NCBI GenBank assembly: GCA_036273515.1
Contig: DASUHM010000044.1
Span: 384-64,383 of the forward strand
Direction of reading: 5' to 3'
DNA length: 64,000 nt
Source of the DNA: Gaiellales bacterium
GTDB lineage: Bacteria; Actinomycetota; Thermoleophilia; Gaiellales; JAICJC01
Below the pieces are notes generated by a model that saw only the letters and a program-made list of their open reading frames with translations, did not search any database and was not told the DNA's origin. Positions within the stretch are counted from its first letter, which is position 1. Every line of letters starts with the position of its first letter. Below, piece after piece: positions 13,747 through 46,814 of the stretch. A program made the position numbers and the translations under genes.

Positions 13747-13814
13747 GCGTTCAGACTAGATCATCGGGGCCGCCCTCCCGCAGGCCGGAGCCCGACGCCG
13801 GATGACACCGGCCG

Positions 13815-15739: not shown

Positions 15740-15789
15740 GAAGCGGAACCAATCCTCCGATTATACCGGACTCGGGAGCTCTCTGAACG

Positions 15790-17328: not shown

Positions 17329-17389
17329 GAAGCGACCCCGGGACGGTGTCGACAAGGACGTCGGTGAACCGCCGGCGTATCGCGGTACA

Positions 17390-17853
17390 TTGGCCGCAGC
17401 GATCGTGCCGACGCCCCAGCACCGGATAACGGAACAGGTCGTCTCGAGCCTCTCGGATGCCCCGCCGCGACTGCGCGAGGTCGTGTCGGCGCTGGTGGTG
17501 CATCTGCACCGGTTCGTCGTCGACGTCCGGCTCACGCCGGAGGAGTGGCGGGAGGCGGTCGACCTCCTCGCAGCCGGCAGGCGACCCGATGTGGGTGTTC
17601 GGACGCGCGCTGACGACGGACGGCGATCCGATCGCGGGCGCCGAGCTGGACGTGTGGCAGAACGAGCGAGCATCTCGACTCGGACGCCGTCTTCGCGGTC
17701 AAGCCGTCGCTGCTGCGCGAGTTCGTCCGTCGCTCACCCGACGACCCGGACGCCCCGCCGGGGATCGCCGGAGACTGGTACTCGGTCGAGAACGACCTGG
17801 TGCTCGTCGCCGGCGCGGCCGAGGAGCCGGTGGACGACGGCCGCACCGCCTGA
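17390..17853 (+). pseudogene. intradiol ring-cleavage (hydroxyquinol/catechol 1,2-) dioxygenase remnant with an internal deletion and frameshifts
   Basis: Frame 1 carries the dioxygenase N-domain 'ITEQVVSSLSDAPPRLREVVSALVVHLHRFVVDVRLTPEEWREAVDLL'. Frame 2 carries 'VFGRALTTDGDPIAGAELDVWQ'. Frame 3 carries 'HLDSDAVFAVKPSLLREF...' and ends at TGA 17851-17853. The Fe-binding catalytic core between these pieces is absent. Confidence 0.7.
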
Positions 17854-17965
17854 GCGAAGGCGGCGTTCATCGAATCTTTACAAAGTTCACACCGGTTTCG
17901 CCCTGCCTCGCTGCCCGGAGGCGATAAGACGCCATCGGCAGGGTTCAAGGACGAGAGGGGGAGTC

Positions 17966-19138: not shown

Positions 19139-19154
19139 CGACACGCATACGGCG

Positions 19155-19191
19155 GCCGGCCGGTCCGCGAGATGTGAGCGGGCCGGCCGGC
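19155..19191 (+). terminator. GC-rich hairpin downstream of the phosphoesterase gene
   Basis: GCCGGCCGGTCCGC (19155-19168) pairs with GCGGGCCGGCCGGC (19178-19191): 14 bp with one G-U pair. There is no U-tract, which is common in high-GC actinobacteria. Confidence 0.5.
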
Positions 19192-19194
19192 TAC

Positions 19195-19400
19195 GCCCGT
19201 CGCGTGGGATGTCGTCCGGCGCATCGCCGGACAGCTCCACCCGTACGGGGCACGCCCGGCAAGGGCCTCGAGCGCAGGCACCGCTCGGACGCGCTGACCT
19301 CCTGGATCTGCGCGCGCAGCTCCGCCTCGAGCCGCTCGTTCTCGAGGGCGCGGCGACCGGTCATGATCCGAGCCGAACTCTCATGAGAGCCTCCAGCCGC
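19195..19400 (-). pseudogene. possible HisKA_3-type histidine-kinase remnant
   Basis: Minus-strand frames read 'ENERLEAELRAQIQEVSAS' (the coiled coil that usually precedes the H-box), then 'ALEALAGRAP' and 'VRVELSGDAPDDIPR' in two other frames (the kinase region preceding the N-box). No H-box or ATP-binding boxes remain. Confidence 0.35.
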
Positions 19401-19533
19401 TCGGGCGCGAGCCACCCACTTTTCGCGCTCGCTGTCCGGGCGACTCTACGCCTTCGTCGATCGCCAGTTGCTCTTGAGGACGGGGTCGGCGCGCGGGTTG
19501 CGAACAGGCACGCATGCATATAGCATGTAAGCT

Positions 19534-33085: not shown

Positions 33086-35127
33086 GCGTCACCGCCCCGG
33101 TCGATCATGAGCGCGCCGCTTCGGTGCACCGTCGCCCTGAAGCCGCGATCGACGTAGGTGGTCGTCGTCTGCTCGCGCACGATCGCGGGCCCGTCGACCG
33201 TCGCGCCGGGCGCGAGGTGGGAGCGGTCGATCACGGCGAACGCGACCAGCTCGCCGCCGGTGAACGACCACGCCTGCACCGTCTCGTTCGCGGCGGCGCC
33301 GTCGCCGTTTCTCGAGGCCACCGAGGGCGGCACCGGGCTGTACTCGAGCGGCGTGGTCGCAAGCGCGCGCACGCACACGATCTCGAGCTCCTCGTCGAGG
33401 ATGGAGCCGAACGTCCGCTCGTACTCGTCCAGAAAGCGCTCGGCCACCGGCTCGGGGTCGCCCTCGACGGCGCCTCCGGGCGCCGGCACCGGGACGGTCA
33501 GCGTGTGCTCTTGCCCGACGAACCGGATGTCCATGTGCACCTCCCGCACGCTCCGCCCGGGCTCGCCCGAGCCGCGCGCGTCGAGCTCTCCGAACAGCTG
33601 CTCCGCGATGGCGCCGGCCTCGGTCAGCCCGTCGGCCGAAAGCCGGGTGACGCGCGTGCGCGAGACGCTGCGGGCGAGGTCGGCGCCGAGCAGGCCGACC
33701 GCCGAGAAGTTGCCGGCGTACGGGGGGACGACGACCGTGCTGACGCCGAGCTCGTCGGCCAGCACGGTGCCGAAGAGCGGCCCGGCGCCGCCGAAGGCGA
33801 CGAGCGTCGCCTCCCGCGGGTCGCGGCCGCGCTCGATGGTGACGCTGCGGATCGCGTCGGCCATCTGCGCGGCGACGATGCGGATCACGCCGCAGGCGAC
33901 CTCGGTGACCGAGCCGAGCCCGAGCGGCTCGGCCAGGCGGCCGAGCGCGCGCTCGGCCAGCTCGAGCACGAGCGGCACGTCGCCCGCGATCTGGGCGGCC
34001 GGGATCATCCCCAGCGCCAGCGCCGCGTCGGTCACCGTCGCGTGCTCGCCGCCACGGTCGTAGCAGGCCGGTCCCGGGTCGGCGCCCGCGCTCTGCGGAC
34101 CGACGCGGAGCAGGCCGCCGGAGTCGACGTAGGCGATCGAGCCGCCACCGGCGCCGATCGAGCGGACGTCGATCCACGGCGTCTGGATGGGAAGGCCGAC
34201 GACCTCGCCCTGGTACAGCACCGGCGGGCGGCCGTCGTCGATCAGGCAGGTGTCGAAGCTGGTGCCGCCGACATCGGCGGCGATCGCATGGCGCAGGTCG
34301 AGCTCGCGCGCCAGGTCGGCGACGGCCCGCGCGCCGGCGACCGGGCCGGAGAGGATCGTCTCGAACGGCCGCCCGGACGCCTCGCCGAACGTCATCGCGC
34401 CGCCGCCCGAGCGCATGATCATGCATCCGCCCGTGAATCCCTTGCCGCCCAGGCCGCCCTCGACGCGGCCGAGGTAGTCGCCGAGGCGGCGGCGGACGAA
34501 GGCGTCGATCACCGTCGTGCAGGTGCGCTCGTACTCGCGGTACTCGCCCGACACCTGGTGCGACAGCGAGATGTCGCCGGCGAAGCCCGCATCGCGCAGC
34601 AGCCGCTCGGCCTCGAGCTCGTGCGCCGGGTTGGCGTACGCGTTCATGAAGGCGATCGCCACCGCATCCACCCCGTGCTCGATGAAGCGGGCGGCGGCCG
34701 CGGTCACGTCGGCCGGATCGAGCGCGACATGCTCCGCGCCGTCCGCGCGGATGCGCCCGCGGACGGGGATCCGCAGGTGGCGCTCGACCATGGGCGGCGG
34801 TGCCCGCCAGAACAGGTCGTACGGATCGCCGCGGTCTCCCCGGCGTACCTCGAGGACGTCGCGAAAGCCGCTCGTGCACAAGAGGCCCACCAGCGCCCCG
34901 CGGCTCTCGAGAAGCGCGTTCAACCCGACGGTCGTTCCGTGCAGGAAGTACTCCGAGGCGGCCACGTCGCCCGTCGCCAGCACCGAGTCGAGCACGCCCA
35001 GCACGCCCTCGTCGGGCGCGTCGGGGACGGTGGGCACCTTGCCGATCACGATCCGCCCGGTGCCCTCGTCGCTGAGCACGAGATCGGTGAACGTGCCGCC
35101 GACGTCGACTGCGATCCTGTTTGGCAT
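33082..35127 (-). CDS. hyuA: hydantoinase A / oxoprolinase subunit (HyuA family)
   Basis: Start ATG 35127 ('MPNRIAVDVGGTFTDLVL'). The internal 'AADVGGTSFDTCLI' is the second ASKHA motif. Confidence 0.9.
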   Translation of the reverse strand: MPNRIAVDVGGTFTDLVLSDEGTGRIVIGKVPTVPDAPDEGVLGVLDSVLATGDVAASEYFLHGTTVGLNALLESRGALVGLLCTSGFRDVLEVRRGDRGDPYDLFWRAPPPMVERHLRIPVRGRIRADGAEHVALDPADVTAAAARFIEHGVDAVAIAFMNAYANPAHELEAERLLRDAGFAGDISLSHQVSGEYREYERTCTTVIDAFVRRRLGDYLGRVEGGLGGKGFTGGCMIMRSGGGAMTFGEASGRPFETILSGPVAGARAVADLARELDLRHAIAADVGGTSFDTCLIDDGRPPVLYQGEVVGLPIQTPWIDVRSIGAGGGSIAYVDSGGLLRVGPQSAGADPGPACYDRGGEHATVTDAALALGMIPAAQIAGDVPLVLELAERALGRLAEPLGLGSVTEVACGVIRIVAAQMADAIRSVTIERGRDPREATLVAFGGAGPLFGTVLADELGVSTVVVPPYAGNFSAVGLLGADLARSVSRTRVTRLSADGLTEAGAIAEQLFGELDARGSGEPGRSVREVHMDIRFVGQEHTLTVPVPAPGGAVEGDPEPVAERFLDEYERTFGSILDEELEIVCVRALATTPLEYSPVPPSVASRNGDGAAANETVQAWSFTGGELVAFAVIDRSHLAPGATVDGPAIVREQTTTTYVDRGFRATVHRSGALMIDRGGDA

Positions 35128-35214
35128 GCCGCCACTCTGACGCGCCGCCATGGCCGCGGTCAATGTGCCGCGAGACCAACATGCGGCGAGTTGTTGTGTC
35201 CCTGACATGATGGC

Positions 35215-36435
35215 GTGGTGCGACTCGACGACGTGCTGCGCAAGGATCCGCGCCTCGACCTGACCCTGGTCGCCGGCCCCTGGGACGCGCGCACGGTCGA
35301 GGGCGTCAGCCTGGCCGATGAGACGACACGGGTCGCACGCGCGCGCCGCGGGGAGGTCGTGGTGCTCACCCGGCGGGCCTCGCGCAGCGCCTCAGGACGC
35401 GGGCTGACCGAGCTGCTCACCGTCGCCGGCGAGCGCGAGGTGGCGGCGCTCGCGCTGTACGGGCGGGCGACGACATCGCAGGCCGTCATCGCCACGGCGA
35501 GCGGCGCCCGCGTCGCCCTGCTCGCGATCGGGCTCGGCGAGGATCCGGCCGCGCTCGTGGCCACGCTCGAGGAGGTGCTCCGCGCCGACGCCGATGCCGT
35601 GCTGCTGCGGCTGGCGGCCGCGGCGACCGCGATCGAGCATGCGGAGCCGGAAGGCGCCGAGGCGATCCTGATCGCGGCGTCGGCGGCGCTCGACGCGCAG
35701 GTGAGCGTCCGCAACGGCGTCGTGGTCGCGGACCGGCAGGATACGGCGACTCGCATCGGCTGCCGGCTCGTCGCCGACGCCCTCGCGCGCGCCGGCGCCC
35801 AGGCCGAGCCGCCGGCCGTGGGGTCGGTGGTCGTCGTCCTCGAGCCCCTCGGGCGCGACGGCGGCGACCTCGTCATGCTGGAGGCGCTGCGGGCCGCCCG
35901 CGCCGCCGGATGGCACGCCGCCCGCGAGGGCGCGTCGGTGCGCCTGCGGGGCAACGGCGACGGCGCCCGGGTGGCGGCCGCGGTGATCGACCGGCTGCCG
36001 GTGCGGGTCGTCTGCGGCGTCGGCCGTGATGCCGGCGAGGCCCGGACGGCACTCGCGCGGGCGCGCGCGAGCGGCGCGTGGGACGTTCCCTTCCCCTTCG
36101 ACGCCGCGGATCCCGACGGACTCGTACGGGAGCTCGCCGGCTCGCCGGCGGGCCAGGCATCGGCGGCGGGCCTGCTGGCGCCGCTCGCGAAGCTCGGCGA
36201 GGCCAAGGCTGCAACCGCGATCGAGACCCTCCGGGTCTACCTCGACTGCTGGGGCTCGCTCTCGCGCAGCGGCGCCATCCTCCACCTGCACCCGAACGCC
36301 GTCGCGCACCGGATGAGGCGGATCCGCGCCCTGCTCCCGGCCGACCTCGACGACCCCGACCAGCGGCTGGCGCTGCAGATCGCCTGCCGGGCGTGGAGCG
36401 GCGGTCAGGCCACGGGCCCGGCGGACGCGCCGTAG
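35215..36435 (+). CDS. PucR/CdaR-family transcriptional regulator
   Basis: C-terminal PucR-type HTH 'TLRVYLDCWGSLSRSGAILHLHPNAVAHRMRRIRALL'. Divergent from hyuA across an 87-bp intergenic region. Confidence 0.8.
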   Translation: MVRLDDVLRKDPRLDLTLVAGPWDARTVEGVSLADETTRVARARRGEVVVLTRRASRSASGRGLTELLTVAGEREVAALALYGRATTSQAVIATASGARVALLAIGLGEDPAALVATLEEVLRADADAVLLRLAAAATAIEHAEPEGAEAILIAASAALDAQVSVRNGVVVADRQDTATRIGCRLVADALARAGAQAEPPAVGSVVVVLEPLGRDGGDLVMLEALRAARAAGWHAAREGASVRLRGNGDGARVAAAVIDRLPVRVVCGVGRDAGEARTALARARASGAWDVPFPFDAADPDGLVRELAGSPAGQASAAGLLAPLAKLGEAKAATAIETLRVYLDCWGSLSRSGAILHLHPNAVAHRMRRIRALLPADLDDPDQRLALQIACRAWSGGQATGPADAP

Positions 36436-37362
36436 TCAGGCGACCCCGAGCATCTTCCGGAGCAGGGCGCCGAGCTCATCCAGGGCGTGGCGGCCGCCCA
36501 CGGCGCCCGCGATGCGGTCATCGATCTCGGCCAGAGCGCCGCGCGCATGCTCGAGCGCGGCCGTTCCCTGTGCGGTCGGGGCGATGATGTAGGAGCGGCG
36601 GTCGAGCGCGTTCTGGCGGCGTTCGGCCAGACCGTGCTCCTCGAGCGCGTCGACCAGCTCGACGATGATCGTGCCGCTCACCCCGAGCTCGCGCGCGAGC
36701 GACTGCTGCGACCCAGGTGTGTGGGCGCAGATGGCGAGAGCGCCGAAGTGGCGAGCCTGGATCCCGAGCGGTTCGAGCGCGCGCTCGAACTCCGTTCGCA
36801 GGCGTAGGTGCGAGCGGGCGAGCAGGAACCCGGGTCGGTCCATCAGCGACGTCGGTGGCCCGGTGTCGTCGAAGCCGGCGAGCAGCCCTTGCAGCAGCTC
36901 GTTCAGACGCGCCCGCTCGTCCATGGACAGACGCCCCAGGAACGCACCTTCGCACTCGCGCAGGACCGGGCCGAAACGGGCCAGGGCCTCCGTTCCGGTC
37001 GGCGTCACGACCAGCTGGTAGGCACGCCGGTCGGCCGGGTCGCGCCGCCGCTCGACGAGCCCCTTCGCCTCGAGGGCGTCGACGATGCCGACCATGGTGG
37101 TCCGGCCCAGGTCGAGCCGTGCGCCCAGCTCGCCCTGCGAGATCGGCCCATCGTCGATCGCACGTAGGACGACCAGCAGCCGCGGGTGCAGCTCGCCGCG
37201 GAGCGCGGCGACCGCGGTCCGCTGCGCGTGCATGAACGCTGCGAAGACCAGGAACCCCACGTGCGGGGCGAGGGCGGGCGGTACCCGCGTCGGCCCCTCG
37301 ACCCCGCTCTCCGGCCCGGCAAATGATCCATACCCAGGATTATCAACCTTGTTGACGTTCAT
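36436..37362 (-). CDS. tandem (two-domain) MarR-family transcriptional regulator
   Basis: Two complete MarR winged-helix units in one 308-aa chain: 'ISQGELGARLDLGRTTMVGIVDALEAKGLVERRRDPADRRAY' and 'GSQQSLARELGVSGTIIVELVDALEEHGLAERRQNALDRRSY'. Start ATG 37362. The upstream 376 codons of the track ORF are an antisense shadow of the MMPL gene. Confidence 0.8.
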   Translation of the reverse strand: MNVNKVDNPGYGSFAGPESGVEGPTRVPPALAPHVGFLVFAAFMHAQRTAVAALRGELHPRLLVVLRAIDDGPISQGELGARLDLGRTTMVGIVDALEAKGLVERRRDPADRRAYQLVVTPTGTEALARFGPVLRECEGAFLGRLSMDERARLNELLQGLLAGFDDTGPPTSLMDRPGFLLARSHLRLRTEFERALEPLGIQARHFGALAICAHTPGSQQSLARELGVSGTIIVELVDALEEHGLAERRQNALDRRSYIIAPTAQGTAALEHARGALAEIDDRIAGAVGGRHALDELGALLRKMLGVA

Positions 37363-37389: not shown

Positions 37390-39555
37390 ATGCTGCGGGG
37401 GATCGGCAAGATCATGCTTCGCCACCGCAAGGTGGTGGTCGCCATCTGGGTGGCGCTCACGATATTCGGGGCGTTCGCGGCACCGCGGGCGACGAACCGC
37501 TTCCTGACGACGTTCTCCATCCCAGGGTCGTCGTCCTACCAGGCCAATCAGCAGATCGTGAAGACGTTCGGGAACGGCGACCAGCCGCCGCTCGTCCTCG
37601 TCTTCCACGACCCGTCCGCGGACGTGACCAAGGTACCGGGAATCGCGCGTGCGGTCGCGGCGGCAAAGCACGTGAACCCGGGCGCCCGGGTCAGCTCGTA
37701 CTTCACGACCCACTCGAACGCCTACGTCTCGGCCGACGGGCACACGACGTTCGTCGAGCTGTACCCGGCCGGGGCGAACGGCTTCGGGTCGGGCGGCACC
37801 GTCGACGCAACCCAGCGCGCCATCGCGAGCGCCGCCCCGGCGGGCGTGCGCGCCGACGTCACCGGCACGACCGCGCTCGAGCTGGCGGCGGGCAACGGCG
37901 ACACCGGCGGACCGAGCATCCTGGTCGAGACGGCGGTCGGCGCACTCGGCGCGCTGATCATCCTGCTGTTCGTCTTCGGGACGCTGCCGGCCGTGATGAT
38001 GCCCTTGCTCGTCGCCGCCGCGTCGATCCTCAACACCTTCACGGTGCTGTGGGTGCTCACGTACGTCACCGACGTGTCGGTGATCGTCGAGTTCCTCGTC
38101 GCCCTCGTGGGCCTGGGCATCGCGATCGACTATTCGCTGCTCTACATCTTCCGCTTCCGCGAGGAGCTGGCCAAGGGCGAGTCGGTCGAGCAGGCCACCC
38201 TCGAGACCATGGAACACGCGGGCCGCTCGATCATCGTCTCGGGCTCGACGGTGGGCATCGGCCTGCTCAGCATGATCATCCTGCCGATCCCGTTCATCCG
38301 CTCCATCGGCGTCGGCGGCCTCCTGATCCCCACCGTCTCCGTGATCGCCGCCCTGACCCTGTTGCCCGCGATGCTCTCGATCATCGGCCCGGGCATCAAC
38401 CGCGTCCGCGTGCTGCCGCGCCGGTTCGTCAGCGGCGGCGACCCCGACCGTGGCCCATGGGGCAGCTGGGCACGCCTCGTCACACGGCACGCCGCGCTGA
38501 TGGCCGGGATCGGGCTCGCCATCGTGGCGATCCTGCTCGTGCCTGCCGCTCAGCTGAACCCCGGCGACGCCCTCGCCAAGGACCAGCCCGGAGCCGGCCC
38601 CGCGATCGTCGGTCGCGACACGCTCGCGGCCTCGGGCATCACACCCGGGGCCATCGACCCGTTCGTGATCACGGCTCGTGGGGTGACCCAGGCCCAGCGC
38701 CGCCAGGCCGCCGCGGCGGTCGCTGCCACCGGCGGCATCGCCGGGGCGGCGGCGCCCGACGGCTGGTCTCGCAACGGCCTCTCGCTGATCGAGGCGTTCC
38801 CGACCGGCGACTCAGCGGGCAGCCCGGCATACGACACGATCGGCCACCTCGAGGACACCGCCCTCCCCGGAATCGAGCGCCGGCTGGGCGGCGGCGCACA
38901 GCTGCGGATGGCCGGTGACGAGCCGCAGAGCCGTGACTTCAGCCGCACCGTGTACGGCAACTTCCCCTACATGCTCGCGTTCGTGGTCGTCCTGACCTAC
39001 GTGCTGCTCGCTCGCGCGTTCCGCTCGCTGGTGCTCCCGCTGAAGGCCGTGCTCCTGAACCTGGTGTCGCTCGGCGCGGCCTACGGCATCATCGTCTTCA
39101 TCTTCCAGCAGGGCCACGGCAGCCAGACGATCTGGGGCGTGCCCGGCACCGGCGTCGTCATCTCCTGGATCCCACTCATGATCTTCGCGTTCCTGTACGG
39201 GATCTCGATGGACTACGAGGTGTTCATGCTCACGCGCATGCGGGAGGTCTACGACGAGACCGGCGACACGAACCGCGCCATCGAGATCGGCCTCGAGCGC
39301 ACCGGCAAGCTCGTGACGAGCGCCGCGCTGATCCTCATGTTCGCGTTCCTCGTCCTCTCGAGCAGCCCAGGGCTCGACATCAAGCAGTTCGGCATCGGGC
39401 TGGCGGCCGGGATCATCTTCGACGCGACCGTCATCCGCGCGCTCCTCGTTCCATCGATCATGAAGCTCATGGGCCGCTGGAACTGGTGGCTACCCCACCC
39501 CGCCGCGCGGGTCCTGCTCGTCCCGCCCAGCACGCCGATCCCCGAGGGCGAGTAG
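37390..39555 (+). CDS. MMPL-family (RND superfamily) membrane transporter
   Basis: 721 aa with a 12-TM two-module layout. 'GIAIDYSLLYIFRFREEL' and 'YGISMDYEVFMLTRMRE' are the duplicated MMPL motifs. Confidence 0.9.
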   Translation: MLRGIGKIMLRHRKVVVAIWVALTIFGAFAAPRATNRFLTTFSIPGSSSYQANQQIVKTFGNGDQPPLVLVFHDPSADVTKVPGIARAVAAAKHVNPGARVSSYFTTHSNAYVSADGHTTFVELYPAGANGFGSGGTVDATQRAIASAAPAGVRADVTGTTALELAAGNGDTGGPSILVETAVGALGALIILLFVFGTLPAVMMPLLVAAASILNTFTVLWVLTYVTDVSVIVEFLVALVGLGIAIDYSLLYIFRFREELAKGESVEQATLETMEHAGRSIIVSGSTVGIGLLSMIILPIPFIRSIGVGGLLIPTVSVIAALTLLPAMLSIIGPGINRVRVLPRRFVSGGDPDRGPWGSWARLVTRHAALMAGIGLAIVAILLVPAAQLNPGDALAKDQPGAGPAIVGRDTLAASGITPGAIDPFVITARGVTQAQRRQAAAAVAATGGIAGAAAPDGWSRNGLSLIEAFPTGDSAGSPAYDTIGHLEDTALPGIERRLGGGAQLRMAGDEPQSRDFSRTVYGNFPYMLAFVVVLTYVLLARAFRSLVLPLKAVLLNLVSLGAAYGIIVFIFQQGHGSQTIWGVPGTGVVISWIPLMIFAFLYGISMDYEVFMLTRMREVYDETGDTNRAIEIGLERTGKLVTSAALILMFAFLVLSSSPGLDIKQFGIGLAAGIIFDATVIRALLVPSIMKLMGRWNWWLPHPAARVLLVPPSTPIPEGE

Positions 39556-39605
39556 GCGCGAGGACGTTCGTCCCGCCGGCGGCGGTGTCGTAGAGTCGCG
39601 GGACC

Positions 39606-41057
39606 ATGTCCCACGTGAAGGTGGCGGTTCGAAGCGACGCCGGCGCGACGGCGCTCGTGGCCGGCGTGATCCCGCCGTTCGCGTCGGCGGCGGGCATCTC
39701 GGACACGGACGCCCGACGCCTGGGGGCGGTCGTCGAGGCGCTGGTCGGCTTCACCCTCGATCACGCGTACCCGAGCGATCCGTGGGGCGAGATCGAGGTG
39801 ACGCTGGAGGCGGGTGACGGCGTCACATCCATCGACGTCCACGACTGGGGGCTGCCGCTCACCTCCGCCGGCGGCGAGCTGGGGCCGCTCCCGTCACAGC
39901 TGGCATCGTTGGCGGTCGACGTCGACGACCTCGGGCTGATCAACCTGGGCGGCGACGGGAAGCGCGTGACGGCTCACCTCCGGACCGCCACCACCGCACC
40001 GGCGGCGGATCCGCCACCGCCGCGACACGAGCGCGTCTCACACGCCGCTGCCGCCGACCTCCGCGACGCCATCCAGATCCGCGAGGCGGGCGCGCATGAC
40101 GCCGAGGCGATCGCCCGGCTCCTGTACGAGAACTACCACCTGAGCTATGTGCATCCGGACTTCTACCGGCCCCGCTTCCTCGCCGGCGAGCTGACCGCGG
40201 GTCGGCTCCGGTCGACCATTGCCGTCCATGACGGAGACGTGATCGGACACCACGCGATCATGACCGCGCGCGAGGCGCCGTCGGCCGAGACCGGCGCAGC
40301 GGTCGTCCACACCGCCTACCGGGGCCTCGGCATCTTCGGCCGGATGTTCCCGCATACGGTCGACCGAGCCCGCGGGCTCGGCCTGGCGGCGATCTACGGC
40401 GACGCCGTCACGATGCATCCGTTCAGCCAGCGCGCCGAGCACGCCCACGGCTACCGGCCCTCCGCACTGATGCTGGGGATGGTCCCGGCCGCGGTGACCA
40501 TGCGAAGCGTCGAGGCCGGCCATCCCGAACGCCGGACCGCGGTCGTCCGCTCCTATCTGCTCTTCGACCGTGCCCGGCGCCCGGTCACGCTCCCCGAGAG
40601 GTACGAGGGGCCGCTCGCCGCCCTGTACGACGAGCTGCTTTTGGAGCGGGCGCCGGCGGTCGAGATGGACGCAGACGGCGACGCCGTCACGAGTGAGGAC
40701 GACTCAATGCGCGGCCTCGCCTTCCTCCGCGTCCGCCGCTGGCATCCCGGCGCAGGGGACGCCCTCGTGCACACGGTGCGGCACCTGCTCTCCCGCCACG
40801 CCGACCTGCTCTACGCCGATGTGGATCTGCACGCGATCGGCGACCCCGGCGCCGCCGTCTCGTGCCTGAACGATCTCGGCTTCTTCCTGGCGGGTCTTGT
40901 CCTGCACGGCTTCGAGGGCCACGACCACCTGCGACTCCAGCGGCTGAACTCCGAGCAGGTGGAGCTCGAGACCATCGTCTGTGCCTCTCCGGCGTCTGAG
41001 CGCCTCAAGCAGCAGGTGCTGGACGACCGGCTACGAGTGGAACCGTCGCCGTCCTGA
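39606..41057 (+). CDS. fusion protein: anti-sigma-factor-kinase-like HATPase (RsbW/SpoIIAB type) + GNAT acetyltransferase + uncharacterised C-terminal domain
   Basis: The N-terminal ~125 aa read 'LGAVVEALVGFTLDHAY...IEVTLEAGDGVTSIDVHDWGLP...LINLGGDGKRVTAHL' (HATPase_c_2 pattern). The central region 'IQIREAGAHDAEAIARLL...AVVHTAYRGLGIFGRMF' is a GNAT acetyl-CoA-binding region. The last ~170 aa have no motif I recognise. Confidence 0.65.
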   Translation: MSHVKVAVRSDAGATALVAGVIPPFASAAGISDTDARRLGAVVEALVGFTLDHAYPSDPWGEIEVTLEAGDGVTSIDVHDWGLPLTSAGGELGPLPSQLASLAVDVDDLGLINLGGDGKRVTAHLRTATTAPAADPPPPRHERVSHAAAADLRDAIQIREAGAHDAEAIARLLYENYHLSYVHPDFYRPRFLAGELTAGRLRSTIAVHDGDVIGHHAIMTAREAPSAETGAAVVHTAYRGLGIFGRMFPHTVDRARGLGLAAIYGDAVTMHPFSQRAEHAHGYRPSALMLGMVPAAVTMRSVEAGHPERRTAVVRSYLLFDRARRPVTLPERYEGPLAALYDELLLERAPAVEMDADGDAVTSEDDSMRGLAFLRVRRWHPGAGDALVHTVRHLLSRHADLLYADVDLHAIGDPGAAVSCLNDLGFFLAGLVLHGFEGHDHLRLQRLNSEQVELETIVCASPASERLKQQVLDDRLRVEPSPS

Positions 41058-41135: not shown

Positions 41136-42371
41136 TCAGGCGGCGATGCGCTTCTTGCCCTTGAGCATGTCGTGCGGGTCGAGCACGAACTTCTTGGCGA
41201 CGCCCTTGTCGAAGTCCTGGTAGCCGCCGGGTGCCTCGTCGAGCGAGATGACGGTGGCGTTCACGGCCTTGGCGATCTGGCAGCGGTCGGCAAGGATCGC
41301 GTTCATCAGCTTGCGGTGATAGCGCATGACCGGGCACTGACCGGTCGTGAACGAGTGCGACTTCGCCCAGCCGAGGCCGATCCTGATCGACAGGCTGCCC
41401 TGCTTCGCGGCCTCGTCCTTCGCGCCCGGATCACCGGTCACGTAGAGCCCCGGGATGCCGAGCTTGCCGGCCTGGCGGGTGACCTCCATGACCGAGTTCA
41501 GCACCGTCGCCGGCGCCTCCTCGGCGTCCTGGCCGTGCCCGCGCGCCTCGAAGCCCACAGCGTCCACCGCGGCATCCACCATCGGCTCGCCGACGATCCC
41601 GTCGATCTGATCGGTCAGCGAAGCGTCCTTGGTCAGGTCGACCGTCTCGCAGCCGAAGCTCTTCGCCTGCTTGAGCCGGTCGGCGTTCATGTCGCCGACG
41701 ATCACGACCGCCGCGCCCAGCAGCTGGGCGGAGTGCGCCGCCGCCAGCCCGACCGGCCCGGCGCCGGCGACGTACACCGTCGACCCAGTGGTGACCCCGG
41801 CCGAGACGCAGCCGTGGTAGCCGGTCGGGAAGATGTCGGAGAGCATCGTCAGGTCGAGGATCTTCTCGAGCGCCTGCTCCTTGTCGGGAAACCTGAGCAG
41901 ATTCCAGTCCGCATACGGCACCAGCACATACTCCGCCTGGCCGCCGACCCAGCCACCCATGTCCACATAGCCGTAGGCCGAGCCATAGCCGGCCGGGTTC
42001 ACGTTCAGGCACACGCCCGTGTTGCCCTCCTTGCACATGCGGCAGCGACCGCAGGCGATGTTGAACGGCACGGACACCAGGTCGCCCTTCTTGATGAACT
42101 CGACTCCCGGGCCGGCCTCGACCACCTCGCCGGTGATCTCGTGGCCGAGGATCAGCCCGGCCGGCGCGGTCGTGCGGCCTCGCACCATGTGCTGGTCGGA
42201 GCCGCAGATGTTGGTCGCCACGATCTTGATGATCGCGCCGTGCGGCGTCTTGCGACCCACGTTGTCCGGGTGAACGCCCGGCCCGTCCTGCAGCTCGAGC
42301 TTCGGATAGTCGATCGTCTGCACCTCGACCTTCCCCGGCTCGATGTATGCAACCGCCTTGTTGCCGGACAT
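41136..42371 (-). CDS. fdhA: glutathione-independent formaldehyde dehydrogenase (Zn-dependent MDR family)
   Basis: 'NICGSDQHMVRG', 'GHEITGEV', structural-Zn 'CGRCRMCKEGNTGVC', NAD motif 'GAGPVGLAAA'. The length and the 'GYGSAYGYVDMGGWVGGQAEY' insert match the Pseudomonas putida FdhA type. GAGGAGG RBS. Confidence 0.85.
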   Translation of the reverse strand: MSGNKAVAYIEPGKVEVQTIDYPKLELQDGPGVHPDNVGRKTPHGAIIKIVATNICGSDQHMVRGRTTAPAGLILGHEITGEVVEAGPGVEFIKKGDLVSVPFNIACGRCRMCKEGNTGVCLNVNPAGYGSAYGYVDMGGWVGGQAEYVLVPYADWNLLRFPDKEQALEKILDLTMLSDIFPTGYHGCVSAGVTTGSTVYVAGAGPVGLAAAHSAQLLGAAVVIVGDMNADRLKQAKSFGCETVDLTKDASLTDQIDGIVGEPMVDAAVDAVGFEARGHGQDAEEAPATVLNSVMEVTRQAGKLGIPGLYVTGDPGAKDEAAKQGSLSIRIGLGWAKSHSFTTGQCPVMRYHRKLMNAILADRCQIAKAVNATVISLDEAPGGYQDFDKGVAKKFVLDPHDMLKGKKRIAA

Positions 42372-42475
42372 CTCGGGTCCTCCTCTCGTCGATTTCCCTT
42401 CCCCGGGCGCATGCCCGGCGACGCGGGGCGGGAAACCACTCGCCGTCCGCCCGGCCTGCGACGATCGAGAGCAGC

Positions 42476-42658
42476 ATGGGAACGCCGATCGAGGATCCGG
42501 GCGACTCCGACATGGGGCGGCGCATGGACGAGATCCGGCTCAAGCAGATGCTCGGCGGCAAGCTCACCGACCAGGAGCTGATGTGCCTCCAGATCGAGGC
42601 CAACGGCTTCGGCTGCGGGAGCTGCCCGAGCCGGGAGCCGCCCAGCTCGGCCGTCTAG
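42476..42658 (+). CDS. small hypothetical protein with a C-terminal 'GFGCGSCPS' motif (44-60 aa depending on start)
   Basis: Third-position GC bias is strong from 42476 to the stop and absent from the upstream part of ORF 42347..42658. Alternative starts lie at 42512 and 42524. No strong RBS. No family recognised. Confidence 0.45.
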   Translation: MGTPIEDPGDSDMGRRMDEIRLKQMLGGKLTDQELMCLQIEANGFGCGSCPSREPPSSAV

Positions 42659-42889
42659 CCTTGTCGCGCTCGGGACGAGGTCCGAGAATCGCCGCCGAGG
42701 CGTCGAAACCGGCCGCGCCAGTTCCTCTCACCCTGGGAGCGGCCCGTGCTGTCCACGCATCAAAGATCGTTGCCCGGCGCGCATGCGCGGCGTAAGGCGA
42801 TCAAGCGGTGCTAACCGGCGCTCGAGCCGGCGCACGACCCGATCTGACCTGCGGAACTCTCGGCTCCGGTCTGCCGTCTGACTCTCAGG

Positions 42890-43534
42890 ATGGGCAGGAT
42901 GGCGGGGATCACGACGCTCACGGCGGCCCTGGCCCTCGTTGGCTCCGGCTGCGGTGGGAGCTCGGGCGCCACGGCGCTGAAGGTCGCGTTCGGCCCCGAC
43001 GACGGCAGCCGGGGATTGGTCGTCTTCCACGTTCGCTGCGATCCGCCCGGAGGGTCGATCCCCGCACCGGCCGCGGCCTGCGCGCGGATCACGAGCCGGC
43101 CGCGGCTCGTGACTCCCCCGCCCTCCAACTCCACGTGCAGCCCCGGCATCGGCCAGTGGGCGGTCTCGATCACCGGGAGCTACCGCGGCCAGGCGGTCCG
43201 GCAGCACTTCGGGGCCTGTGACAACCAGGTGTTCGCCTGGATGAGACTCGCGCGCTACCGGCCGTGCCCGGACAACTTCATGGACTTCGCAAACCCGTGC
43301 GACCACGGCCCGTACGCCTTCGGCAAGGCTCACATGCGAGGGGTGTTCCCGAACGTCCCCAGGGTGGTGGGCATGACGGCCGCCGCCGCCCGCCGCGTCC
43401 TCCGGCGCCAGGGCCTGGAGGCGCGGTTCATCCCCGCGTTCACGGCGAGGCGCCGGGTGATCCGGCAGTCGCCCCGGCCGCGCACCTCGGCCAGGGTCTA
43501 CGCCCTCGTCACCCTCCGGATCGCCGGCTCCTGA
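42890..43534 (+). CDS. lipoprotein with a subtilisin-inhibitor-like (SSI) domain and a C-terminal PASTA domain
   Basis: Lipobox 'LVGSGC'. Four Cys residues with SSI-like spacing ('RCDPPGGSIPAPAAAC...STCSPG...FGACD'). PASTA-like 'VPRVVGMTAAAARRVLRRQGLEARF...RVIRQSPRP...VTLRIA'. Confidence 0.6.
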   Translation: MGRMAGITTLTAALALVGSGCGGSSGATALKVAFGPDDGSRGLVVFHVRCDPPGGSIPAPAAACARITSRPRLVTPPPSNSTCSPGIGQWAVSITGSYRGQAVRQHFGACDNQVFAWMRLARYRPCPDNFMDFANPCDHGPYAFGKAHMRGVFPNVPRVVGMTAAAARRVLRRQGLEARFIPAFTARRRVIRQSPRPRTSARVYALVTLRIAGS

Positions 43535-45618
43535 GCGCCAGGCTCGCATGCCGGAGCGTCGTGGGCGCGGTGGGCGGGGAGGGCGAACGTGATGCGGGTG
43601 CCTTCTCCCGGCGTCGAGACGAGGGTGAGGTTGCCTCCCGCGAGCCGGAGGCGCTCGGCGCTGTTGTCCAGGCCGAAATGGTGAGTGGCCCGGGCGCGGG
43701 CGCGAGCGGAGGCCACGTCGAAGCCTGATCCGTCGTCGGCCACCGTGCCGGCGATGAGCCCGTCGATGTCGCGGATGTCGATGCACACGCGCCGGGCGTT
43801 CGCGTGGCGCTGGATGTTGATCAGCGCTTCGTGGATCGTGCGGAACACGAGCGACTCGATCACATCCGAGTAGCGCGCGAGGTCGAGATCGAGCACCAGC
43901 TCGAAGCCGGCGTGGCCGGCCGCGTGGCGGGCGAGGTCGGACACGGCGGCGGTCAGGCCTTCGGCCTCGAGCAGCTGGGGCCGGAGGTTGAAGGTGAGCT
44001 TGCGGGTGCGCTCGATCGCCTCGGCGAGGGTGTCACGGGCACGGGCCACCCGTTCGTGCGCCTGGCCCCCCGGGGTGAGCGCGTGCCGGGCGCCGTCGAG
44101 GCGCAGGAGCGCCGCGGTCATCGCCTGGATCGTGTCGTCGTGCAGGTCGGCCGCGATCCGGACGCGTTCCTCCTCCTGTGCCTCCAGCAGGCGGGCGAGC
44201 GCCTGGTCTCGCCGGTCTTCGCTGAGGCGGAGCGCCTGCTCGGTGCGGTGTTGCGCGGTGATGTCCTCGCTGATCAGGGTGGCGGCGACGACGACGCCGC
44301 TCTCGCTGCGCAGCGGCACCAGGTTGACGTTGATCTCGCGGCCCCTGACGGCGAGCCGGTCGCGCACGTCGATCCCGGCCAGCGACTTGCGGATCAGGGG
44401 CTGGAGGGTCGCCACCGTCGCAGCGTCGAACGCCTCCGCCAGGGTGACGCCCTCGACCGCCGCCGGGTCGATGCCGATCAGCTTCAGCCCCTCGCCGCGA
44501 ACGAGCAAGAGCCGCAGGTCGCGGTCGAACATGGCGATGGCGCCGTTCGGGAAGTTCTCGGCGATCACCTGGGCAAGACCGGCGTGGGCCCGTTCCAGGT
44601 CCTGCGTCCGCTCGGTGACGCGCTGCTCGAGATCGCCGTTCGCGCGGCGGAGCGCCGCCTGCGCGTCGTCGCGCTCGGCCAGGACCGCGGCCACCGTCAA
44701 CCCGACGAGCGCTGCCACCGCCAGGAACAGCTCCAGCATCGCCAGCCGATGGTCGACCGAGCCGGTCGCGAAGGGGCCGCGATCGTCGACCGTCCGGCTC
44801 ACGACCACGGCGCACACCACGGCCACCGCCCACGCCGACGCGGCCGCACCGAACCGAAGCGCCGCCCAGATCAGGAACGGGAACACCGCGTAGAGCTCGT
44901 GCGGCGACCCGGTGTCGAAGACCGCATCGGTGAGGGTGGTGTTGGCGACCAGGACGAGTCCCGCTCCGAGCGCCGCCGCCTCGAGGACGCGTCCGGCCGA
45001 CGGGCGAGCCGGCATGTGCGTCGGCCAGGTGAGGAGAAGCGGCGCGAACAGCAGGATGCCCATCGCGTCGCCGACCCACCACACCGACCAGACAGACCAG
45101 TACGCCGACCAGGTCACGAGCCCATGGGCCGCCAGGTTGGCGACGCCGTTCGTCGCGCTCACGAGCGGCGTCACCCCGGCGACGGCCACGAAAAGGCAGA
45201 CGTCTCGCATGCGGCGAAACCCCGGAGCGAACCCGAAGCGGCCCAGAAGGACGGCGCCCAGGATCCCGGCACACGTGTTGCCCACCGCGATCCCGAACGC
45301 CGTCGAAAGCCCTTCGTAGGTCATCGCGTTGGCCACGAGGGCGGCGGCGAACACGCCCGGCCACACCCGGATTCCCCACACCAGGAACGCGACGAGCGCG
45401 ATCCCCGTCGGCGGCCACACCGCCGTCACCTGCTTGGTCGTGAACGCAAGCGACAACCCGAACCGGGCCGCCGCGAAGTACGCGACGCCGACCACGCCGA
45501 TCCGCAGCGCGAGCCGCTGATCGAGCAGCACCGCCGGGCGATCCCACACTGCCCCGCGCGGGCCGCGAACGAGCGGAGTCGCCAACCTCACGAAACGACC
45601 TCCTAGCCCAAGCACCAA
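43498..45618 (-). CDS. MASE1-PAS-HisKA_3-HATPase sensor histidine kinase (no adjacent response regulator)
   Basis: MASE1-like membrane domain ('VAYFAAARFGLSLAFTTKQVTAVWPPTGIAL'), a PAS region, H-box 'RIAADLHDDTIQ', N-box 'HEALINIQRHANA' and G-box 'DDGSGF...GEGTRITFALP'. Confidence 0.85.
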   Translation of the reverse strand: MVLGLGGRFVRLATPLVRGPRGAVWDRPAVLLDQRLALRIGVVGVAYFAAARFGLSLAFTTKQVTAVWPPTGIALVAFLVWGIRVWPGVFAAALVANAMTYEGLSTAFGIAVGNTCAGILGAVLLGRFGFAPGFRRMRDVCLFVAVAGVTPLVSATNGVANLAAHGLVTWSAYWSVWSVWWVGDAMGILLFAPLLLTWPTHMPARPSAGRVLEAAALGAGLVLVANTTLTDAVFDTGSPHELYAVFPFLIWAALRFGAAASAWAVAVVCAVVVSRTVDDRGPFATGSVDHRLAMLELFLAVAALVGLTVAAVLAERDDAQAALRRANGDLEQRVTERTQDLERAHAGLAQVIAENFPNGAIAMFDRDLRLLLVRGEGLKLIGIDPAAVEGVTLAEAFDAATVATLQPLIRKSLAGIDVRDRLAVRGREINVNLVPLRSESGVVVAATLISEDITAQHRTEQALRLSEDRRDQALARLLEAQEEERVRIAADLHDDTIQAMTAALLRLDGARHALTPGGQAHERVARARDTLAEAIERTRKLTFNLRPQLLEAEGLTAAVSDLARHAAGHAGFELVLDLDLARYSDVIESLVFRTIHEALINIQRHANARRVCIDIRDIDGLIAGTVADDGSGFDVASARARARATHHFGLDNSAERLRLAGGNLTLVSTPGEGTRITFALPAHRAHDAPACEPGAQEPAIRRVTRA

Positions 45619-45648
45619 CCCGGCACCGTAACCCGCCCGTCCCGACGG

Positions 45649-45695
45649 GGCCTACCCAAATCCGGCATGTCGCCCTCCCCGGATTGAGGTAGGCC
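45649..45695 (-). terminator. imperfect 17-bp hairpin downstream of the protease operon
   Basis: GGCCTACCCAAATCCGG (45649-45665) pairs with CCGGATTGAGGTAGGCC (45679-45695), with 2 central mismatches and a 13-nt loop. Confidence 0.4.
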
Positions 45696-45710
45696 CGTCG
45701 TTTCGTCTGT

Positions 45711-46814
45711 CTAGCGCGGCGGCCCGCTCCCGAGCGCCACGTTCGCCGTCTGGGTCGTGCCGTACTGATCGACGTAGGTGGCGGAGACCGGCGCGCCCGG
45801 CTTCTGGGTGGCGACGATCTCGGTCAGCTGGTCGGGCGACGAGACGGACTGATCGCCGACCGCGGTGATCAGGTCGCCGGGCGTGAGGCCCGCGGAGTCC
45901 GCGGGACTGCCGGGCACGACCGAGGTGACCACCGCGCCGGAGCCGCCGTAGCTGTCCGCCTCGACCGCGACGCCGAGGAAGGCGGTGCCGCCAATGTGGA
46001 CGGCGGTCGATGCCTGGCCGTGCGTGATCTGCGAGGCGATCGACAACGCCTTGTCGATCGGGATGGCATATCCGGCGGTGGCGACGTCCTGCGGAGAGCC
46101 GTTCGCGACGGACGCCGCGGTGTCCATGCCGACCACCTCGCCGGATGTGTTCATCAGCGGCCCGCCGGAGTCGCCGGGCTGGATCGGCGCGTTGGTCTCG
46201 ATCATCCCGGACAGGCTCTCGCTCCCGCCCTGGTCGTCGCTCACGGTGATGCCACGGCCGATCCCCGTGACCGTGCCGGTGGCGGCGCGGAGCGAGCCGG
46301 TGCCGCCCGCGTTCCCGAGCGCCTTGATGGCGTCGCCGGTGCTGAGCGACGAGGAGTCGCCGAGCGGGATCGTCTTCAGGTTCGCCGCGCGGGCGGCCTG
46401 GAGGACGGCGACGTCATCGGTGGTGTCGTAGCCCACGACCTGGGCCTTGTACCTGCGGCCGGTGGTCGGGTCGACGACCCGGATGTCGGTCGCGCCGCGG
46501 ATGACATGGTTATTGGTCAGCACCGTGCCGGACGACGTCAGCACCATGCCGGTGCCGGCCGCCTGGGCGTCCTGGTAGCCGAGGTTGGTCTCGATGACGA
46601 CGACGCCGCTTCCGACGCGCGCAGGCCCGCCACCCGAGGTGAGGGCAAAGCCCACGGCGCTCGCCGCGGCGGTGACGACCACGGCCGCCAGCACGACGCG
46701 GCCACGGAGGCCCCGGCGCGGCTGGGGTTCGGCCTGTGGCGCCGTGGGATCCGCATCGACGGCGCCGCCGCCGAGGGGTTCGAGGGCGTTTCCCGCGTTC
46801 TCGTGTTCGGTCAT
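45711..46814 (-). CDS. membrane-anchored HtrA/DegP-like S1C serine protease with a PDZ domain
   Basis: TM anchor 'VVLAAVVVTAAASAVGFAL'. Catalytic triad contexts 'TNNHV', 'DVAVLQ', 'GDSGGPL'. C-terminal PDZ 'GAVVTSVVPGSPADSAGLTPGDLITAVG'. Confidence 0.9.
   Translation of the reverse strand: MTEHENAGNALEPLGGGAVDADPTAPQAEPQPRRGLRGRVVLAAVVVTAAASAVGFALTSGGGPARVGSGVVVIETNLGYQDAQAAGTGMVLTSSGTVLTNNHVIRGATDIRVVDPTTGRRYKAQVVGYDTTDDVAVLQAARAANLKTIPLGDSSSLSTGDAIKALGNAGGTGSLRAATGTVTGIGRGITVSDDQGGSESLSGMIETNAPIQPGDSGGPLMNTSGEVVGMDTAASVANGSPQDVATAGYAIPIDKALSIASQITHGQASTAVHIGGTAFLGVAVEADSYGGSGAVVTSVVPGSPADSAGLTPGDLITAVGDQSVSSPDQLTEIVATQKPGAPVSATYVDQYGTTQTANVALGSGPPR

Follow-up and report, generated by a model that had tools for sequence, protein, structure and literature searches.

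What does a kinase domain of the partner-switching type do when it is joined to an acetyltransferase? The question is raised by a gene at positions 39606..41057 (+ strand) of a 64,000-nucleotide stretch of Gaiellales DNA (Actinomycetota, Thermoleophilia), here called the window, which has a G+C content of 70-75%. The gene is complete and encodes 483 amino acids plus a stop codon. Its product comprises an RsbW-like domain, a predicted pseudokinase, followed by a linker, a GNAT domain and a C-terminal domain, as judged from the list of open reading frames (ORFs), the translation, the homologues and the ratio of nonsynonymous to synonymous substitution rates (dN/dS). With moderate confidence, the gene is best explained as coding for a regulated acyl-CoA-dependent N-acyltransferase, whose RsbW-like domain serves as a regulatory receiver derived from partner-switching. 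Relatives of the gene in other phyla stand in complete partner-switch cassettes, and therefore the family probably links phospho-signalling to acyl-CoA-dependent acylation and not to a sigma factor.

Domain architecture and selection

The ORF starts with ATG and has 483 codons. An original prediction for this locus had quoted four segments, all of which are found in the translation: VVEALVGFTLDHAY (residues 42-55), IEVTLEAGDGVTSIDVHDWGLP (residues 63-84), GGDGKRVTAHL (residues 115-125) and AVVHTAYRGLGIFGRMF (residues 232-248, in the GNAT part). A Gaiellales metagenome-assembled genome (MAG) holds a 100% identical protein, named 'hypothetical protein'. At least 514 homologues were present among the scored candidates. 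The 120 homologues listed share 54-91% identity at 92-100% query coverage.

The N-terminal domain (residues 1-128, 39606..39989, + strand) belongs to the RsbW/SpoIIAB type of the Bergerat/GHKL fold, as had been predicted; a placement outside the GHKL fold was not observed. The family profile, built from 115 diverse full-length members and compared with the PDB, matches Bacillus subtilis RsbW (6m36, E 6e-21, positions 5-138), SpoIIAB (E 4e-13) and the RsbW domain of Rv1364c (3ke6, E 1e-7), the last of which was also found by Foldseek. An earlier AlphaFold2 (AF2) model, poorer in that the GNAT core was half unfolded, placed RsbW-type structures first in Foldseek: RsbW 6m37_A (E 7e-7, template modelling (TM) score 0.83), then SpoIIAB and UsfX. 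In the single-sequence Pfam search, HATPase_c_2 reached 18.1 bits at residues 12-86, below the gathering cut-off of 27.4, while the homologues L084 (70 bits) and P0179 (67.5 bits) scored above it. Residues 1-128 share fold, size and the G1 region D-x-G-x-P-(F/L)-D with the kinases RsbW, SpoIIAB and UsfX. The G1-box-like HDWGLP (residues 79-84, 39840..39857, + strand) contains the D-x-G as D80-W-G82-L-P84. Among the 115 representatives, G82 is found in 114, P84 in all 115 and D80 in 102.

In GHKL proteins, the Mg2+ of Mg-ATP is held by the N-box Asn; anti-sigma kinases also have a catalytic Glu close to it. The window protein has a degenerate N-box (residues 42-55, 39729..39770, + strand). Alignment columns and a pairwise alignment, in which VVEALVGFTLDHAY stands opposite VVEEACMNVIEHAF of the Dehalococcoidia member L084, show Ala45 in the column of the catalytic Glu and Phe49 in that of the Mg-ATP Asn. 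Phe occupies the Asn column in 37/38 sequences of the Gaiellales clade, and the Glu column of these 38 sequences varies between Gly, Gln, Arg and Ala. The Asn is present in 76/90 distant loci and in 47/115 representatives, the Glu in 69/90 and 68/115, respectively. Kinase activity is not expected of the window copy because the Mg-ATP Asn is replaced by Phe and the Glu is lost. The protein is thus a predicted pseudokinase, and the ATP switch that had been envisaged is unlikely for the Gaiellales copy. In the MAFFT display the window clade seemed to have lost its ATP lid, but with hmmalign the region has 24 residues versus a family median of 25, and a deletion was discarded.

Residues 153-320 (40062..40565, + strand) form a GNAT acyl-CoA N-acyltransferase domain, according to AF2 secondary structure, Foldseek and profile matches. 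The full order β1-α1-α2-β2-β3-β4-α3-β5-α4-β6-β7 is complete at residues 157-319 of an AF2 model built with the 115-member alignment (predicted local distance difference test (pLDDT) 91, predicted TM score 0.82). Foldseek on this model ranked single-domain GNATs first (2ge3, E 4e-10, TM 0.82), confirming the predicted GNAT core behind the kinase-like module, and the family profile also matches a series of GNAT structures. Acetyltransf_1 was detected in the single window sequence at residues 172-264 with 18.7 bits, below the cut-off of 20.7; homologues reached 27-47 bits. The Dehalococcoidia cassette members described below pass both Pfam thresholds, HATPase_c_2 and Acetyltransf_1.

The pyrophosphate-binding loop of GNAT motif A, YRGLGIFG (residues 238-245, 40317..40340, + strand; R239-x-x-G242-x-F244), is situated in the model where β4 meets α3. 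Its residues R239, G240 and G242 are conserved in 106, 87 and 80 of the 115 representatives, respectively. Compared with the pattern (R/Q)-x-x-G-x-(G/A), the Arg and the first Gly are present, and the last position is Phe in the window protein and F/L/M family-wide. Backbone amides of the motif could still bind CoA despite Phe244. Nearly invariant across the family are E228, R239, H271, Q275 and R310, and the cofactor and catalytic positions E228, R239/G240/G242, H271 and Q275 are kept in every clade. Further near-invariant polar residues are R159, Y177, Y181, Y187, H215, R310, D440 and Q445.

The best structural matches to residues ~150-320 are small GNATs (Agrobacterium 2ge3, 1yr0, 3dr6 YncA, 5wph ArsN and PA4794) with TM scores of 0.7-0.82. 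These differ from the family in that they share only 14-23% identity and have neither of the flanking domains. The family also has a GNAT signature of its own, Y-x-x-Y-(G/H)-(Y/L)-S-Y ... Y-x-P in the α1-α2 loop and AVT-x-HP(Y/F)SQ at β5-α4. The best sequence match for the GNAT part was PA4794 with profile A1 (E 1.5e-4). With profile A2 it was 7ypu, for which the only citing paper found deals with aminoglycoside N-formimidoylation in BD-12 biosynthesis. NCBIfam yielded partial matches of ~15 bits to N-acetylglutamate synthase and nothing else.

The third domain is a family-specific α/β domain (residues 321-480, 40566..41045, + strand) with the order α-β-β-α-β-α-β-β-α, modelled mostly at pLDDT >90. 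Its conserved motifs are GFF(x)AG, family-wide GFF-x-G, and D440-x-L-R-L-Q445 (D-x-LRLQ). The original prediction had recognised no motif in this part, and indeed neither Pfam nor PDB gave a sequence match for the last ~160-165 residues, even with a 39-member profile. Comparisons by hhalign with the family's own GNAT (E 0.27-0.84, with or without secondary structure from the model) and with its own N-domain (E 0.012) were not significant. In Foldseek searches with full-length models, the top 50 matches were all GNAT or RsbW, and the C-terminal domain gave none of its own. Some resemblance exists to two-lobed GNATs, in which the second lobe is a degenerate GNAT-like one (MshD, Eis, ORF14/2wpw, VipF). 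The strand and helix order of the domain and its 'LGFF-x-G' are reminiscent of the GNAT α4-β6 junction, the family profile matches 2wpw in two stretches, and the Eis N-domain-type Acetyltransf_9 matches some family members. VipF was a weak tandem-GNAT match in Foldseek with the earlier, poorer model (rank 35, TM 0.27). In contrast, no tandem GNAT is among the top 50 Foldseek matches of the pLDDT-91 model. The C-terminal domain was never seen apart from GNAT and is also present in forms of ~330 aa that lack the N-domain. GNAT and C-terminal domain are therefore the core of the protein, to which the RsbW-like domain is accessory.

The N-terminal domain and the GNAT domain are joined by a Pro/Ala-rich linker (residues 129-152, 39990..40061, + strand). 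It is poorly conserved and predicted to be disordered, with pLDDT <50 at residues 130-147, to which the disorder of the better model is confined. Its dN/dS is erratic, reaching ~2.

Codon-level comparison of the window gene with three 82-83% identical orthologues yielded dN/dS values of 0.20-0.28 for the N-terminal domain, similar to those of the GNAT domain (0.17-0.37), and of 0.36-0.52 for the C-terminal domain. All three domains are thus under selection, which marks the ORF as a real gene, and the purifying selection on the N-terminal domain implies that this domain still does something. An RsbW-like domain, or a whole gene, that decays as a functionless remnant in the Gaiellales lineage would fit the loss of Asn and Glu in the N-box, the two Pfam matches below their gathering thresholds and the frame disruptions in the close relative L036. 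The dN/dS values of N-domain and GNAT largely refute this explanation, which is scarcely credible. Phe49 and ~60 other positions are invariant in the 42 sequences of alignment A1 (window protein plus 41 homologues, down to 54% identity), and the ORF is unbroken in nearly all of 46 related loci (one genome per species, all Gaiellales/Thermoleophilia-type MAGs). In L036 (8001-9448), an 84%-identical orthologue from a long-read MAG, the frame is disrupted and four in-frame stops follow, owing either to pseudogenisation or to an assembly indel.

Partner-switch cassettes in distant relatives

Partner-switching has mostly been studied as a control of sigma factors. The genomic context of distant family members was sampled in a metagenome scan, seeded with a 10-sequence sub-alignment, which yielded 80 loci; flanking ORFs were clustered and recurrent clusters annotated. 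Owing to this seed, the context sample is biased to the 'LRLQYLNN' clade. In one clade of Dehalococcoidia/Chloroflexota, the gene order is STAS, RsbW-GNAT fusion, PP2C. The STAS protein, of 113 aa, was identified by Pfam (E 8e-24) and is an 'anti-sigma factor antagonist' in NCBIfam; its gene precedes the fusion in the same orientation at a distance of 34-228 nt. A membrane-sensor PP2C (5TMR-LYT/SpoIIE) is located 7-32 nt downstream of the fusion. Beyond the cassette lie a second PP2C (ECF-S/HAMP/SpoIIE) and two genes of the butyryl-CoA:acetate CoA-transferase family. Counts based on hidden Markov models (HMMs) gave STAS in 12/59, PP2C in 11/49 and both in 9/43 loci with enough flank. The phospho-Ser motif (I/L)SSSGL is intact in each of the 16 STAS proteins from cassettes, and all cassette fusion members keep the N-box E..N..H.

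The 19-kb locus L137 comprises STAS, fusion, PP2C, a stand-alone RsbW-like kinase of 145 aa, a further PP2C, two CoA-transferases and a pyruvate:ferredoxin oxidoreductase (POR). The genes for STAS, fusion and first PP2C occupy 8510-8854, 9001-10479 and 10503-11870, respectively. No sigma factor was found in this annotated cassette locus. The cluster (8510-19479; also L070-L087) thus has two kinases and two phosphatases, and a GYD gene is located between the CoA-transferases and POR. GYD-domain proteins of ~96-103 aa near the fusion recur weakly in loci of Gaiellales type and of Dehalococcoidia (L020 2445-2738, L037 9466-9774, L137 16875-17165). An unusual STAS architecture was observed in L089 (4060-6438, - strand): a gene on the strand opposite to the fusion, at a distance of 7 nt, encodes a 792-aa protein whose N-terminal STAS domain is joined to TCAD9 and a Kdo/WaaP-like kinase region; beyond it there is a further gene for a 113-aa STAS protein. 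The Chloroflexota contig L138 carries two paralogous RsbW-GNAT fusions within 5 kb (9001-10470 and 14231-15685), neither of which adjoins STAS or PP2C.

The distant family members resemble the RsbW/SpoIIAB/UsfX systems in the intact N-box and in having a phosphorylatable STAS protein and a PP2C as operon partners. They differ in that an enzyme is attached to the domain where the other kinases bind a sigma factor, and a sigma gene is absent from the cassettes. The window copy departs further, with Phe in place of the Mg-ATP Asn, the Glu lost and no cognate STAS found nearby. Partner switches with non-sigma outputs or fused parts include SypE-SypA of Vibrio fischeri and the RsbU-RsbW-STAS fusion Rv1364c of Mycobacterium tuberculosis (PDB 3ke6). 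As in the window family, an RsbW-like domain is used there outside sigma control and is covalently joined to another module. The fused module of the family is GNAT plus a novel domain, in contrast to the PP2C or STAS of these systems.

A mechanism can be proposed from these contexts. GNAT and the family-specific C-terminal domain would be the catalytic unit, with acyl transfer as the predicted reaction. In the ancestral complete form, represented by the Dehalococcoidia, the membrane-sensor PP2C would dephosphorylate the small STAS protein. The dephosphorylated STAS protein would dock on the RsbW-like domain and change the activity of the fused acyltransferase, which would replace the sigma factor as the output. 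Kinase activity of the RsbW-like domain would re-phosphorylate STAS and reset the switch. In the Gaiellales copy, which has lost the Mg-ATP Asn and the catalytic Glu, phosphorylation would not occur. Its RsbW-like domain may be kept as a docking, dimerising or autoinhibitory module, and the protein may have a partner whose gene lies elsewhere, to which it responds, or may just set a basal activity.

The signal might also run in the opposite direction. GNAT and C-terminal domain would then sense acetyl-CoA or acyl-CoA, and the RsbW-like domain would act as output on STAS, a sigma factor or another partner, which it would bind or, in ATP-competent members, phosphorylate depending on how much acyl-CoA is present. 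The links of the family to acetyl-CoA-producing enzymes (pyruvate dehydrogenase, POR, CoA-transferases, ligases), the kinase-competent N-box of the cassette members and the STAS-domain transporters (SulP-STAS-cNMP) adjacent in two clusters, which are possible regulated targets, would suit such a sensor. However, not the CoA loop alone is conserved: the putative general base E228 as well as H271 and Q275 are nearly invariant. The membrane-sensor PP2Cs already provide the input of the cassette, where no other output is present. Moreover, the N-domain is dispensable in the short forms, while GNAT and C-terminal domain are never absent, and the kinase is predicted to be dead in the window clade. 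A reversed flow is thus improbable.

Several points count against a partner-switched acyltransferase in the Gaiellales. About 80% of the sampled distant loci lack the cassette, and the evidence from synteny comes from relatives that are just 25-30% identical to the window protein. Searches of the 64-kb window and of ±8 kb around the 46 clade members, with HMMs of the cassette proteins and with Pfam on small ORFs, revealed neither STAS nor PP2C; the partner of the window copy is therefore hypothetical. That an exchange of Asn for Phe abolishes nucleotide binding is taken from general knowledge of GHKL proteins. The gating of acetylation by a partner switch, which had been predicted for this gene, is consequently supported at the level of the family by the Dehalococcoidia cassettes and just in part for this copy. 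Tentatively, and with slightly more doubt than trust, the family may be regarded as an undescribed output branch of partner-switching. STAS, RsbW-like domain and PP2C would directly switch a covalently attached acyltransferase and so convert membrane or stress signals into the acylation of proteins or metabolites and thereby into a control of acyl-CoA metabolism. The Gaiellales pseudokinase would still be gating, and the C-terminal domain would be a new substrate-selecting module.

Acyl-CoA enzymes, transporters and the acceptor

Genes for acyl-CoA-forming enzymes recur next to the fusion in several clades. A long-chain-type acyl-CoA ligase is encoded 32 nt downstream in ~10 loci. CoA-transferases are located 33-50 nt upstream in L118, L122, L125 and L128, 160-376 nt upstream in three more loci, and 27 nt to ~5 kb downstream in ~11 further loci. 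In Halothiobacillaceae, a PaaK-like CoA ligase overlaps the start of the fusion by 4 nt, and one family member follows the genes for pyruvate dehydrogenase E1-E2-E3 at a distance of 18 nt. Ligases are thus adjacent in two other clades; the window gene has no CoA ligase beside it.

Known regulated acetyltransferases of bacteria carry regulatory domains of the cyclic-nucleotide, ACT (amino-acid) or NDP-forming-synthetase-like type. Lysine acetyltransferases with a regulatory domain and a GNAT include the cyclic nucleotide monophosphate (cNMP)-GNAT proteins of M. tuberculosis (Rv0998/MtPat) and M. smegmatis (MsPat) and the ACT-GNAT proteins of actinomycetes. AMP-forming CoA ligases are the classical targets of such sensor-GNAT enzymes. 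The window family shares with MtPat, MsPat and ACT-GNAT the general plan of an N-terminal regulatory domain followed by GNAT, and its context ties it to AMP-forming CoA ligases. It differs from the cNMP-gated MtPat type, as the original prediction had stated. The regulatory domain has the fold of a protein-binding partner-switch kinase and not that of a small-ligand binder, an additional C-terminal domain of 160 aa is always present, and there is no sequence relation beyond generic GNAT.

On this analogy, the likeliest acceptors would be lysines of acyl-CoA-forming enzymes, in a feedback on CoA ligases and CoA-transferases similar to that by Pat or AcuA. Based on the sensor-GNAT analogy and the variety of acyl-CoA-forming neighbours, protein lysines on these enzymes are a plausible acceptor, an assignment about as apt to fail as to hold, and the acceptor is the weakest point of the interpretation.

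Three observations weigh against a protein acceptor. The best structural neighbours of the GNAT domain are small-molecule (amino-acid-analogue) acetyltransferases, namely PAT, YncA/MddA, ArsN and TTR. The N-domain-less forms (GNAT plus C-terminal domain, 333-336 aa) are flanked by two paralogues of M20 peptidases/amidohydrolases, a linkage that holds in two different 50%-identity clusters (L139 1844-5002; L140; L141 3-2628). Finally, several family members adjoin transporters. In some relatives an MFS transporter overlaps the start of the fusion by 4 nt, and SulP-STAS-cNMP transporters adjoin fusion genes in two clusters.

Further details of the transporter loci were noted. In L047-L049 (7533-9839) and L054 (6646-8961), SulP proteins with C-terminal STAS and cNMP domains stand beside fusions in which the N-box Asn is replaced by Tyr or His. 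For an ATP-incompetent RsbW-like domain, the STAS carried by the transporter could serve as docking partner. An MFS-cNMP fusion is encoded 4 nt upstream of a Gaiellaceae member (L035). The N-domain-less form of L139 has a SulP-STAS transporter 2 kb upstream, and a ribosomal-protein/rpoA cluster follows.

With the same architecture and regulation, the enzyme might acylate a small molecule, e.g. an amino acid, an amino-acid analogue, a polyamine or a compatible-solute precursor. Ligases and CoA-transferases would then supply the acyl donor, M20 amidohydrolases would reverse the reaction, and transporters would move substrate or product. The known enzymes 1yr0, 3dr6 (YncA) and 5wph (ArsN) are acetyltransferases for phosphinothricin, methionine sulfoximine and arsinothricin. 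The top Foldseek matches (2ge3, phosphinothricin acetyltransferase, YncA, tabtoxin resistance protein, ArsN, SpeG) point in the same direction, and so do NCBIfam and the Joint Genome Institute (JGI), which indicate a GNAT similar to N-acetylglutamate synthase. The tight link of the N-domain-less forms to the two M20 paralogues would be explained, as would the recurrence of co-oriented transporters next door (MFS with the 4-nt overlap, MFS-cNMP at 4 nt, SulP-STAS-cNMP, MMPL in the window and in L009). One fixed small ligand would fit the near-invariant polar residues R159, Y177, Y181, Y187, H215, R310, D440 and Q445, and a tight coupling to ligases is typical of donor-supplying pathway enzymes. 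However, likeness among small GNAT structures tells little about the acceptor, and the PDB sequence matches include the protein or peptide acetyltransferases PA4794 and Sulfolobus Pat. Characterised sensor-GNAT fusions (cNMP-GNAT, ACT-GNAT) are generally known as protein lysine acetyltransferases. Four unrelated kinds of acyl-CoA-forming neighbours are understood more easily as feedback targets than as donors for one acceptor. Small-molecule acylation is therefore possible and rather unlikely; acylation of protein lysines is the preferred assignment.

Promoter, neighbourhood and place of the family

The original prediction had linked the gene to envelope or lipid export on account of its neighbours. 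An MmpL3-like RND gene of the MMPL family (37390-39555, + strand) ends 50 nt upstream on the same strand, as described. The double MarR (~36436-37344, - strand), a single chain of ~300 aa with two MarR/winged-helix stretches, is divergent from MMPL with a gap of ~45 nt and is not placed upstream of it within one operon. This MarR/MMPL layout looks like a classic pair of repressor and exporter; a pseudo-dimeric MarR is in itself unusual. As had also been predicted, neither a STAS nor a sigma gene flanks the window gene. Its downstream neighbour is a convergent gene for a glutathione-independent formaldehyde dehydrogenase (TIGR02819, 746 bits).

The conservation of neighbours was analysed by tblastn of the window neighbours against the 46 related loci and by all-against-all clustering of flanking ORFs. 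MMPL homologues, ~40% identical, recur in 4/46 loci, upstream of the gene in two of them (L009, L019) and 4-7 kb downstream in the other two (L013, L027). By tblastn, MarR and the PucR-type regulator of the window were found in 0/46 loci each. The four closest relatives (L001, L002, L003 and L036; 82-84% identical) have neither MMPL nor MarR nearby. Clustering revealed no conserved neighbour in the 46 loci. Immediate neighbours are miscellaneous and comprise an epimerase, OYE-type reductases, GYD, F420 ligase, a cyclase and an MFS-cNMP fusion. A conserved association with MMPL/MarR was therefore rejected.

A -10-like hexamer, TAGAGT (TANNNT; 39591..39596, + strand), was read from the sequence 9 nt before the ATG and is conserved in related loci. 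TANNNT followed by CGC stands 9-11 nt before the start in 22/27 upstream sequences printed (26 related loci and the window), whatever the upstream gene. An automated count found TANNNT in 20/41, compared with 4.8% in shuffles. Variants in the loci are TAGAGT, TAACAT, TAAGAT and TACGAT, and most have a CGCC or pyrimidine-rich run after the hexamer. A generic scan for sigma-70 promoters and terminators around the gene found nothing. Judged from the conservation and position of the TANNNT element, the gene probably has in it a promoter of its own, and the mRNA would be leaderless or nearly so. The occurrence of the element whatever the upstream gene argues against a control through an MMPL/MarR unit, and the window gene would be transcribed independently of this pair.

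An enzyme that works with the MMPL exporter under the tandem MarR, e.g. with an envelope lipid or an exported compound as its acyl acceptor, would account for the short distance of 50 nt on the same strand and for the lack of a terminator-like site in between. MMPL homologues near the gene in L009, L019, L013 and L027 would agree with it, as would other family members that abut transporters. Such a role is nevertheless very improbable, since the closest relatives lack both genes and MarR is absent from all 46 loci. The conserved TANNNT lies within the 50-nt gap and recurs behind unrelated upstream genes, and the divergent orientation of MarR is typical of a repressor for MMPL alone. The proposed tie to export is hence not supported. 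The window gene is best annotated as a stand-alone, probably self-promoted and regulated GNAT and not as part of an MMPL/MarR export operon.

The surroundings of the window gene contain, upstream (31352-36435), the A and B subunits of a hydantoinase/oxoprolinase with a divergent PucR-type regulator. Downstream (41136-46814) there are, besides the formaldehyde dehydrogenase gene, genes for a PASTA/SSI-like protein of 214 aa, a MASE1-PAS-HisKA_3 histidine kinase and an HtrA-like protease. None of these surrounding genes recurs near the homologues.

The family is broad and is represented in Actinomycetota, Chloroflexota and Pseudomonadota. Clustered at 50% identity, the matches of an exhaustive HMM search with the first alignment amounted to 2016 clusters with E<=1e-3, of which 493 reached E<=1e-30. 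Most clusters have 480-510 aa and match end to end. The window protein and the cassette member L084 share 29% identity over 476 collinear residues (E 6e-45). Source names of family proteins are 'hypothetical', 'GNAT family', 'ATP-binding protein' and 'RsbW', and those of the Dehalococcoidia/Chloroflexota clade just 'GNAT family N-acetyltransferase' or 'ATP-binding protein'. Automatic COG labels at JGI already carry both domain names, so that the fusion is visible to pipelines. No curated family of Pfam or NCBIfam covers the window protein. A curated equivalog or a known characterised enzyme was discarded, as the partial NCBIfam matches reach ~15 bits and the source names are generic; a role in anti-phage defence was discarded as PADLOC gave no match. 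As far as NCBIfam, source annotations and the searched literature show, the protein is not an already characterised enzyme. A full-text literature search, whose coverage was incomplete and whose outcome is absence of evidence only, retrieved neither an RsbW-GNAT fusion nor a partner switch with acetyltransferase output. GNAT and HATPase appear only as separate genes in one paper (PMC10621929).

The family combines two kinds of system that are already known, the regulated GNAT and the partner-switching module, and the window copy is a derived orphan member of it, a predicted pseudokinase. For the annotation of the window the gain is modest, as the gene is an ordinary stand-alone gene; the main weight is at the family level. 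A family of ~2000 clusters with an enzyme output tied to CoA ligases, CoA-transferases, pyruvate dehydrogenase and POR would broaden the view of partner-switch modules. If the interpretation is true, a partner-switch receiver would represent a new way of regulating acetyltransferases and would couple serine phosphorylation directly to acylation. The Gaiellales copy, as a natural pseudokinase variant, can show whether docking without phosphotransfer suffices for regulation.

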